Source: a virus (Duplodnaviria; Heunggongvirae; Uroviricota; Caudoviricetes). From it: a stretch of 44,077 bases of DNA. The first letter of the stretch is position 1; each line of letters begins with the position of its first letter. The DNA lies in IMG/VR virus record IMGVR_UViG_2537561936_000014, positions 1 to 44,077 of that record; one strand, written 5' to 3'. Of the stretch, positions 12,001 through 15,000 are shown piece after piece. The position numbers are program-made.

Positions 12001-15000
12001 AAATTTTTAGTGAAAATGGCCTCTATGCTGTGCGCGTTGAGAATGGGAAAGTTGTCTACACAACGTTAATCCCTGGTGATCATGTAATTTTATCTATCGA
12101 GGCATTCATTGAATACCTTGAAAGGCTCGGTTTCAAGGTGGTTCGCGAATGAGTTATAATTCGTAAGCCAGCCTGAACAACTGGCAACCTACAGCGCCAT
12201 TGGAGACAGCAATGTCGCATATACAACTGGTCAAACAAACCTCTTCTGGATTACTTCTCCCGGCGACGCCGGAGAGTTGCGATTTTTTGCATCAAATCAA
12301 AATAGGTGAGTGGATACACGCGGACTTTAAGCGAGTGCGTAACTACGCGTTCCACAAGCGTTTTTTCAAACTCCTGCAACTGGGATTCGATTACTGGACT
12401 CCGGTCGGTGGGGCGATCACGCCTCGAGAACGAGAACTGGTGTCCGGTTTCGTTGAGTATCTGTGCGAATCAGTTGGTCGGGAACACACTCCAGCCCTGA
12501 GTGATGCCACAGAGCAATACCTTAATACAGTTGCGACATGCAGAACCCGGGATACGGCATTGCTAAAGTCGTTTGACGCTTTCCGCGAGTGGGTAACCAT
12601 TCAGGCCGGATTTTACACCGAGCATATTTATCCTGATGGTAGTCGTGGGCCCAGGGCAAAATCTATCGCATTTGCGAACATGGACGAAACCGAGTTTCAG
12701 CAGGTTTATAAATCTGTACTGAATGTGCTGTGGAACTGGATCCTGTTCCGTAAATTTTCCTCTCCGGAGGAAGTCGAAAATGTGGCCGCGCAGTTACTGG
12801 AGTTTGCGTAATGGTGGATTTACGTAAAGCGGCGCGGGGGCAGATGTGCACCGTCAGAATTCCTGGCTACTGCAATCACAATCCCGAAACTTCTGTGCTG
12901 GCGCATTACAGGCTGGCGGGGACGTGTGGAACAGCGACAAAACCACACGATATGCAGGGGGCAATTGCCTGTAGCTCATGCCACGATTTAATCGACGGGC
13001 GGGTAAAAACCAGCGATTACACCAAAGAAGAATTGCGCCTGATGCATGCAGAAGGTGTTTTTCGCACACAAGAAATCTGGAGAAAGGAAGGTTATTTATG
13101 ATTTACCCAACAAATACAGGAAAAAGCGGGGAACACCTTCGTCTCACCACGCTGGAAAGAGTCTGGATTCAGGGAAAACTGCGCATGTGGGGGCGCTGGT
13201 CGTATATTGGCGGCGGTAAGATGGGAAATATGTTCAACCAGTTGCTGACCTCTAAAAAGCTGACAAAAACGGCAATTAACGAGGCGCTCCGGAGGATGAA
13301 AAAAGCAGGTCTGGACAAACCTGAACTTGAGGCTTTTTTGCGGGATATGATCAACGGTAAGCAAAAAAGCTGGCTGGTGCATTGTAATGATGCAGAGGCG
13401 TTATGCATTGATCGTGTGATTAGTGAAGTACTGGCAGAACACCCAGGATTGATTTTTATCCTCCGACAAAGATATGAAGGGCGGGGGATGAGTAAGCTGA
13501 AAATGGCACAACAGTTAAATAAGTATCGCCCTGGCTGGAGCTTGAAAACTTGCAGAAATCGCATTGATGCATGGTTGGGTGTTGCTGAACACATTCTGTA
13601 TATACCAATGAAATTAGCGTTATGCGGAGAAAGCCAATAAAAAAGTTATTGCATTTTTGCCAATAAACTGCTTCAATTTTGCTACGCTTCGCAAAGCTGT
13701 ATCGCGAGGCGAATCAAGCGCATGAACTTTACCAGACCCCGCCATTGAGCGGGTTTTGTTGTTTCTATGGTGTGATATAAGAAACGACATTTAATAATTG
13801 CCTTCAAAATAAATTTGTTTATATATTGTTGTGTATGTTTTAAGTGAAAGTTAAATGTTTGCATAAAATAAAAACACATAAATAAATTTACATAACTTGA
13901 CGTAAAGTGTTGTTGCGATTGGAATATTAAATCGTATCATCGAAAACGGTTCTGAGGGGGGGGGAGGAACTCTTCTTTGCTCGGTGATATCGCTCCCCTG
14001 AAGAACCAATGCCGACTTAGCTCAGTAGGTAGAGCAACTGACTTGTAATCAGTAGGTCACCAGTTCGATTCCGGTAGTCGGCACCATATGCGGGTATCGT
14101 ATAATGGCTATTACCTCAGCCTTCCAAGCTGATGATGCGGGTTCGATTCCCGCTACCCGCTCCAGCATTTGAAACAAGCCTTATTGTATTGCGGCACTGG
14201 CGTATTTTTTATTACGTGGGGGCAGGTTGTTTTGAAAAAGCATTCTGTTCTCTGGCTATGATTTGAGGCCAGGTGTAGCCTCAGTGCTGATTTTTTTACG
14301 ACAGCAGAATGGTGCATTATCGGTGGAGATTTTGTATTTCCTGGCAGGGTAGGTGATGCATCATTCTGGTGTTGTAAATCGCACCAAAGAGGCGCACCTC
14401 AGTGCGAGGGTGGTTTAAAGAGTCGGTTTAGCGGGAAACCACAGTATCCATACAGCACGGAATACTTCGGGAGACACCCGACGCCTCGGTTTAATAACAA
14501 TTAAAAAAAATCATCCCTTGCATTGACCAACCGCCATATCTGGCGGTTTTTTTTATTCCTTTCTCAGGACGAAAAAAGACACGAGCATCCAGGAATACTC
14601 GTGGGACAACGTCCTTTGGATAGCAATTTGCGAGAGGGTGAAAAGTAGCGCGGTCGTCGGATTAAGACCGCGGGACAAAGTCCATGAAGAATAATAAGTA
14701 TTGGCCCCCTTCCGGGGACATGTTCATACTACCAAGATTCAGAAGTGGTTTAAATCCTCAAATTAACCTTAATTTCCGATAAGTCTTATTTCATTTCTTT
14801 GCGCCACATCTGGAGCTCATCAAATAACGCCACGCAAAGGGCGTCTGCGGATGCCGGTGCTTTTGACGGGGTGTTTTTTACGGGCCGCTGGTGGCCCTTT
14901 TTTTATTTACAGGAGAAAAAAGTATGTCTGAACCCTTATCCGGTTCCGGCACGGCTGCGGCGCTCGGCGGGGCGACGGTGTACGGGCTGTTTACCGGGAC

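Follow-up and report, generated by a model that had tools for sequence, protein, structure and literature searches.

A probable late-gene regulatory region, with a tRNA insert and a conserved long RNA hairpin, between a Q-like antiterminator gene and the holin of an Escherichia coli prophage

In phage lambda, the Q/PR′/qut/tR′ cassette (the 6S RNA unit) places a promoter within tens of bases after the Q gene, followed by an intrinsic terminator and the lysis genes. PR′ has the structure TTGACT-17-TAAATT-6-AACGAT and leads into tR′; its last hexamer, AACGAT, serves as the sigma-dependent pause element (PMC6606751; 10.1101/651190). In Shiga toxin (Stx) phages (Sakai Sp5/933W), the order is Q, PR′, StxS/tR′, tRNA promoter, tRNAs, cargo and lysis genes; in the Sakai Stx2 phage, differential RNA sequencing revealed a promoter between tR′ and stx2AB, separate from PR′, from which the tRNAs further downstream are apparently transcribed (PMC7547250). 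In Salmonella, AntQ of Gifsy-1, for which antitermination has been demonstrated experimentally (PMC4825925), is followed directly by a short terminated RNA gene, isrK. Here we describe the interval between a Q-like antiterminator gene and the first holin gene in a Caudoviricetes sequence, IMG/VR record IMGVR_UViG_2537561936_000014. The whole stretch of DNA that was analysed, 44,077 nucleotides, is referred to as the window.

The interval comprises positions 13641–14923, between the gene for a 180-amino-acid protein (13098–13640) and the ATG of the holin gene at 14924, and is noncoding apart from two tRNAs. Our reading, to which we assign a probability of about 0.7, is that a lambdoid E. coli prophage, with a Q of the DUF1133/AntQ branch, has its late-gene regulatory region here, built of three modules in series: a PR′-type unit, the tRNA insert and the terminators ahead of the holin. 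This reading builds on conservation, covariation, modular distribution and sequence elements that were observed directly. The layout of Q, PR′, tR′, tRNA promoter, tRNAs and lysis genes is the one already established for Stx phages; the region as a whole is a textbook arrangement, and no new biology is needed to account for it. An earlier note on this DNA had recognised the interval as the slot where lambdoid phages carry late-promoter and qut elements. The slot very likely does hold these elements, but the note gave no promoter position; comparison with related loci puts it at 13649–13688.

The protein encoded at 13098–13640 matched Pfam DUF1133 in a profile search (3e-99) and PHROG 753, ‘anti-termination protein Q-like’ (4e-76). 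Its match to the Q21-type family PF06530 was just significant (27.1 bits, cut-off 26), and phmmer linked it to the phage 21 Q structures 6JNX and 6P18 in the PDB (E=0.003), the similarity being weak but specific and involving an N-terminal segment, W..G.L..WG.W.Y.G, together with the central region. Unlike the lambda protein, the window Q is a DUF1133 member with a remote likeness to Q21. With the Salmonella protein encoded directly upstream of the Rfam isrK match, i.e. AntQ of Gifsy-1, it shares 77% identity. A literature search returned no paper that names the family by its Pfam name, DUF1133.

A probable late-promoter unit directly after Q

To compare the DNA that follows Q, 27 loci with a DUF1133-type Q from many enterobacterial genera were lined up at the Q stop codon. 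The architecture TTGnnn-17-T(T/C)NAAT-5-TAnGCT was found in 23 of these loci, in three sequence types, with the first hexamers overlapping the Q stop codon in most cases; in L013–L028, the architecture either overlaps this codon or comes after it. In the TAnGCT hexamer, which begins 5 nt after the first −10-like hexamer, the T, the A and the final T are invariant, and most loci have a preceding TG. Around 30 conserved bases follow and then, 29–80 nt beyond TAnGCT, there is an intrinsic terminator, found by an automatic scan in 21 of the 23 loci and seen by eye in the remaining two. The segment 13689–13714 of the window, which lies in the initially transcribed region, is conserved at 77–94% in loci whose Q is 62–83% identical. 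The candidate PR′ hexamers are weak, and a consensus promoter scan makes no call at 13649–13688.

The layout of this unit matches that of lambda PR′ and tR′. It differs from lambda in the spacing of the second hexamer (5 nt versus 6 nt) and in the length of the short RNA that it is predicted to yield (∼70 nt versus 194 nt), and the window also has a tRNA insert and extra terminators before the holin. We consider that 13649–13763 is likely to be a PR′/pause/tR′ unit directly after Q, with promoter activity, pausing and Q loading all being predicted from the sequence. Transcription would start from the promoter at 13649–13677, and the TGcTACGCT element would then act as a sigma-dependent pause and Q-loading point. 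Without Q, as in lysogens, the unit would give just a 65–75 nt RNA; with Q, the polymerase would become terminator-resistant. In its position, the predicted RNA would correspond to lambda 6S RNA and to StxS (PMC7547250). The unit provides a conserved candidate promoter and pause site for the DUF1133/AntQ antiterminators, a family that is widespread in enterobacterial prophages.

In one Salmonella locus (L007), Q is followed by an isrK/C4/antirepressor module and an intact unit of the window type, starting AAAAAAGTTATTGCAT, stands behind anrP. The unit is therefore self-contained and not a by-product of the Q coding sequence. The DNA right after Q in this locus (L007:3588–3768) and in a second one (L004:3575–3776) matches the Rfam families isrK, c4-a1b1 and C4 antisense RNA; in AntQ-type loci, these matches represent a P1 immI-like antirepressor module between Q and the late-promoter unit. 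The window is like Gifsy-1 in having a short terminated RNA gene, here a predicted one, directly after Q. In contrast to Gifsy-1, the post-Q RNA of the window is not isrK, and it is the isrK type that has the P1 immI-like c4/ant insert before a window-type unit. An isrK or isrJ identity for the post-Q RNA was rejected as there was no Rfam match, and a sigma54 promoter was rejected by eye as the spacing of CTGGCA...TGCAT is wrong.

Several points weigh against our reading. The proposed −10 element (TTCAAT/TCAATT) is without the usual A at −11, as it is in many members of the family, and TGcTACGCT may be the real −10, an arrangement that would leave the unit with no clear pause element. A search for a Q-binding element was likewise negative: the direct repeat of TGAGCA that lies between the −35 and −10 elements in phage 21 (PMC6606751) is absent from the window promoter spacer. 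One sequence type of the DUF1133 loci does contain TGAGCA, inside coding DNA and hence not interpretable. Further downstream, two promoter-like elements overlap within 13897–13940, which might itself be read as a promoter plus pause site. Finally, the insulation of the holin by terminators, described below, is something that we infer.

Table 1. Positions of the elements in and around the Q-to-holin interval (window coordinates)
Feature	Position	Strand	Basis
Q-like antiterminator gene, DUF1133 family, AntQ-like	13098–13640	+	Pfam, PHROG, phmmer, identity to AntQ
Candidate PR′ and second −10-like element: TTGCAT (13649–13654), 17 bp, TTCAAT (13672–13677), 5 bp, TGcTACGCT (13680–13688)	13649–13688	+	Architecture in 23/27 loci
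Conserved initially transcribed sequence; predicted 5′ hairpin 13685–13711	13689–13714	+	Conservation, fold
Intrinsic terminator, proposed tR′ (stem 13738–13753, then T-rich tail)	13738–13763	+	−11.8 kcal/mol, z −2.7
AT-rich spacer (20–27% GC) upstream of tRNA promoter, with conserved ATTTACA..TTGAC motif	13764–13912	+	Sequence comparison
Putative tRNA-insert promoter, TTGCGA-16-TATCAT; predicted start ∼13946–13948	13913–13940	+	Promoter scan, conservation
Leader hairpin, 60 nt, ending 3 nt before tRNA-Thr; basal stem GGUUCU/AGAACC, GA/UGA internal loop, hypervariable tip	13948–14007	+	Fold, comparison
tRNA-Thr (UGU; TGT in DNA)	14011–14086	+	ARAGORN; Rfam 73.8 bits
tRNA-Gly (UCC; TCC in DNA)	14090–14164	+	ARAGORN; Rfam 65.6 bits
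Weak terminator-like hairpin with T7 run, merging into base of long hairpin	14263–14296	+	z −0.4
Long conserved RNA hairpin, ∼28+4 bp, many G.U pairs, conserved UGGCAGGG loop segment	14280–14392	+	Fold, covariation
Strong intrinsic terminator (8-bp stem, T8)	14529–14556	+	z −4.1
Three GC-rich hairpins (14580–14603, 14650–14673, 14705–14718), GGGACAnnGUYC motif after each	14580–14727	+	Copy comparison
Weak terminator-like hairpin	14840–14864	+	z −0.7
Strong intrinsic terminator, T-run end 19 nt before holin ATG	14882–14904	+	Scan and fold
Shine–Dalgarno AGGAG (14911–14915) and start codon of Phage_holin_8 holin (ATG 14924)	14911–14926	+	Sequence

RNA structures between the tRNAs and the holin

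The first part of the DNA downstream of tRNA-Gly, 14165–14560, folds far better than shuffled sequences (z −6.2) because of a long hairpin at 14280–14392 (−47.2 kcal/mol, z −6.8), which coincides with the most conserved stretch outside the tRNAs. Of 5426 E. coli genomes searched, 397 contain the hairpin, at 519 places and with 75–99% identity; it is also present in at least 119 viral contigs and in the loci L011 and L082–L087. Its position relative to the tRNAs is fixed: 128 of 133 copies are located 100–118 nt 3′ of tRNA-Gly(TCC), the distance in the window being ∼115 nt. The tRNA arrays that precede it are Thr-Gly, Met(CAT)-Arg-Thr-Gly and Met(CAT)-Lys-Thr-Gly.

For 19 distinct sequences compared over 32 pairs, 97.7% of the cells were paired, against 33–60% when the partner strand was slid, and no shuffle matched the observed pairing or covariation score. 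When 66 distinct sequences were used, 97.1% were paired; at one pair, the combination is AU in 34 sequences and GC in 23. About eight positions are G.U pairs, which on the other strand would be C.A, and the helix is therefore formed by RNA transcribed from the + strand. No Rfam family corresponds to the hairpin, the matches to generic microRNA-precursor models being far below threshold.

Hairpins processed by RNase III include the rRNA operon stems, the T7 early sites and lambda sib. The long hairpin resembles these in having a helix of ∼30 bp with single mismatches in a stable-RNA transcript, and has no sequence relationship to them. By this analogy, a helix of such length near stable RNAs suggests an RNase III-type processing signal or a stabilising signal. 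The hairpin could serve as a processing or insulation signal that parts tRNA maturation from the downstream late mRNA. We suggest only tentatively, and at rather less than even odds, that the long hairpin (perhaps with the base of the leader hairpin upstream of the tRNAs) is an undescribed structured RNA for prophage tRNA arrays and, separately, that the ∼70-nt post-Q RNA is an unrecognised StxS/6S counterpart for the DUF1133/AntQ family.

The three GC-rich hairpins further downstream are accompanied by a direct repeat, CGYGGGACAAMGTCC, at 14600–14614 and 14669–14683 (69 nt apart), with a third, related copy near 14716. In three or four of the most divergent copies of the region, the hairpins at 14580–14727 show compensatory exchanges of AU and GC. 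Overall, 14556–14923 folds no better than shuffled sequence (z −0.8).

It is unlikely that, terminators aside, the 760 nt separating tRNA-Gly from the holin are decayed filler, a functionless remnant of lost cargo. Such an origin would fit the lack of a conserved open reading frame (ORF), the frameshifts that short ORFs carry in some copies, the ordinary folding of 14556–14923 and the replacement of this stretch in related prophages by other sequence or by cargo genes. It is at odds with the conservation and covariation of the long hairpin, which hundreds of genomes carry at a constant spacing from tRNA-Gly, with the strong fold of 14165–14560 and with the compensatory changes in the hairpins at 14580–14718.

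The earlier note also pointed out that toxin or defence cargo often occupies this slot. None is present here, the cargo being the two tRNAs. In three related E. coli prophages (L082, L084 and L086), genes of the TerB family and DUF3927 lie between the long hairpin and the holin, showing that this part of the slot accepts cargo genes.

The tRNA insert, its putative promoter and the terminators ahead of the holin

The only promoter call adjoining the tRNAs is TTGCGA-16-TATCAT. In diverged tRNA modules, the promoter is kept as TTGAAA-16-TAATAT/TATTAT and the spacers are unrelated. The same module of promoter, leader and tRNAs is found in other prophages behind a DNA methyltransferase gene instead of Q, and in DUF1133 loci that have no tRNAs the promoter is absent. 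As the promoter travels with the tRNAs behind either gene and is missing without them, it is probably the insert's own. The earlier note had emphasised the nearby G-tract and implied a late promoter close to it; neither is supported, and the promoter adjacent to the tract would instead be that of the tRNA insert.

A different assignment has 13897–13940 as the Q-dependent late promoter, with PR′ being TTGACG-17-TGGAAT and the pause element TATCAT at about +3 to +8. In that case the late leader would include the tRNAs, the terminator at 14529 would be the first real tR′ and the one at 13738 would do no more than end the Q transcript. No noncoding stretch is better conserved than this block (0.98–0.99), and its two promoter-like elements, 15 bp apart, do resemble a promoter-plus-pause layout. 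We nevertheless regard the assignment as improbable. Diverged copies keep TTGAAA-16-TAATAT alone, the upstream TTGAC motif having no conserved −10 partner; the module also occurs behind the methyltransferase gene in other prophages; and DUF1133-Q loci without tRNAs lose this promoter and retain the unit directly after Q. The tRNA promoter of the Stx2 phage was likewise mapped apart from PR′ (PMC7547250).

Transcription of the mobile insert from its putative own promoter would produce, in order, the leader hairpin, tRNA-Thr(UGU), tRNA-Gly(UCC) and the long hairpin. The basal stem and the GA/UGA internal loop of the leader hairpin are retained in all versions, with exchanges of U-A for C-G or U.G in diverged copies. 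A kink-turn was considered for this hairpin and rejected: the tandem GA is present and the 3-nt bulge is missing.

The DNA of the two tRNAs (14011–14164) is matched in almost all E. coli genomes at 95–99% identity, and these matches are presumably the host's own tRNA-Thr and tRNA-Gly genes. Two Salmonella records of the phage collection have a tRNA-Tyr under the 14011–14164 match as well. Capture of the pair from a host tRNA operon is suggested. The insert is a mobile tRNA-Thr/tRNA-Gly module; ∼7% of complete E. coli genomes contain it, and neither of its two conserved RNA structures has an Rfam entry. We take the tRNAs of both the Stx phages and the window to read codons that are rare in E. 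coli. In contrast to the Stx phages, the window has tRNA-Thr(UGU) and tRNA-Gly(UCC) and no toxin gene, and the leader and long hairpins are specific to the window module. A sequence search gave no match of the interval to Stx phages.

The interval had been described as terminator-rich noncoding DNA, and this holds: seven hairpin-plus-T-run sites were found in 13641–14923 (five on the + strand and two on the − strand) where 1.2 ± 1.0 were expected from dinucleotide shuffles, and no ORF is conserved. Over the larger region 13000–15600, there are 11 terminator-like sites compared with 3.1 ± 2.2 in shuffles. The strong + strand terminators are at 13738–13753, 14529–14548 and 14882–14897, each having a GC-rich hairpin with a U-run directly after it; those at 14263–14284 and 14840–14855 are marginal. 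The three strong sites had all been listed before (14529 as 14531), but the tRNAs, which were on the same list, are not terminators of this kind. The last terminator does lie ∼20 nt before the holin, its T-run ending at 14904 shortly ahead of the Shine–Dalgarno sequence and the start codon.

Among copies of the region, the terminators at 14529 and 14882 vary in their loops alone. The 14882 terminator is part of the upstream block, with homology stopping at 14903 where the lysis cassette differs. Judging the termination efficiencies from sequence, the terminators at 14529 and 14882, together with the weaker ones at 14263 and 14840, would most likely stop transcripts from the tRNA promoter that are not Q-modified ahead of the holin. 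Q-modified polymerase from PR′ would pass tR′, the tRNA module and all the later terminators into the holin gene. The lysis genes would then be reached solely by Q-modified polymerase from PR′; the dependence of lysis on antitermination, already proposed in the earlier note, is what the terminators imply. The density of terminators, with the last one abutting the holin ribosome-binding site, would be explained by the presence of a putative constitutive insert promoter 1 kb upstream of lethal lysis genes.

The run of nine guanines that had been reported at 13956–13964 is present. It falls within the leader-hairpin tip, and ∼16 nt separate it from the −10 element of the tRNA promoter upstream. 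The length of the tract had been proposed as something to check among isolates. It does vary, with five guanines being the norm, but it lies outside the promoter spacer and outside any ORF. The form in most copies is GAGGGGGAAC (G5). G6 was seen once and G9 in E. coli M8, and G9AGG is shared by the window with two viral contigs. G5 was seen in 44 of 50 matches among the fetched loci, mostly viral contigs, and in ∼50 of 59 full-length E. coli matches taken as a spread sample. The lengths of the latter were 129 bp (n = 50), 142 bp (n = 7), 155 bp (n = 1) and 132 bp (n = 1). Other isolates carry a 13-nt unit, GCTCGGTGATATC, in two or three copies in the hairpin tip (one to three overall), and in diverged tRNA modules the tips are unrelated in sequence.

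Slippage explains the tract best, and G9 is probably a rare slippage allele in an unconstrained hairpin tip. As the tract varies in a place where it is unable to tune the promoter or a reading frame, a role in phase variation is not supported: although its length differs among isolates (G5, G6, G9 and G9AGG, and classes of 129, 132, 136, 142 and 155 bp for the region in E. coli genomes), it is most improbable that it is a contingency tract switching late-gene, lysis-gene or tRNA expression, as it is downstream of the −10 element, the tip also tolerates 13-nt duplications and wholly different sequences, and the predominant G5 allele is too short for frequent slippage.

Distribution, coding content and neighbouring genes

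Among the 5426 complete E. coli genomes, ∼170–185 contain the block 13654–14903 at 84–97% identity, as do 47 IMG/VR contigs. The lysis cassette next to it is of at least three unrelated kinds: holin_8, lambda S/R and essD class II. Therefore, the block travels on the Q side and not on the lysis side, and its terminators belong to the Q/tRNA side. The mosaic homology breaks at 13654/13664, at 14165, where tRNA-Gly ends, and behind two terminators (14558 and 14903), the second of these being the last before the holin.

No reading frame is kept across 31 distinct homologous copies of the interval. Hidden coding was rejected because ORFs of at least 45 amino acids are broken and their frame differs among copies. 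A 32-amino-acid ORF at 14684 was also discarded as a gene, being frameshifted in seven of the 31 copies and changing freely, as were ORFs of 20 and 41 amino acids that are not conserved among copies. Distant BLAST searches for decayed phage homologues with each part of the interval recovered only the same family. In Rfam searches of the interval at gathering and lax thresholds, only the two tRNAs passed, with the next best match reaching 23 bits against a threshold of 100.

From 14924 onward, the genes 3′ of the interval, all on the same strand, encode a Phage_holin_8 holin, a 3TM holin, an M15 peptidase (endolysin) and terminase. Elsewhere in the window, Rfam matches were found to the sok antitoxin RNA at 11374–11548 (+ strand, 117.7 bits), which implies that the nin region ahead of Q has a hok/sok-type toxin–antitoxin locus, and to DicF antisense RNA at 4986–5036 (− strand, 69.6 bits). 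A third match, to sRNA-Xcc1 (78 bits), lies on the − strand at 35136–35219, in the late/tail part of the prophage.

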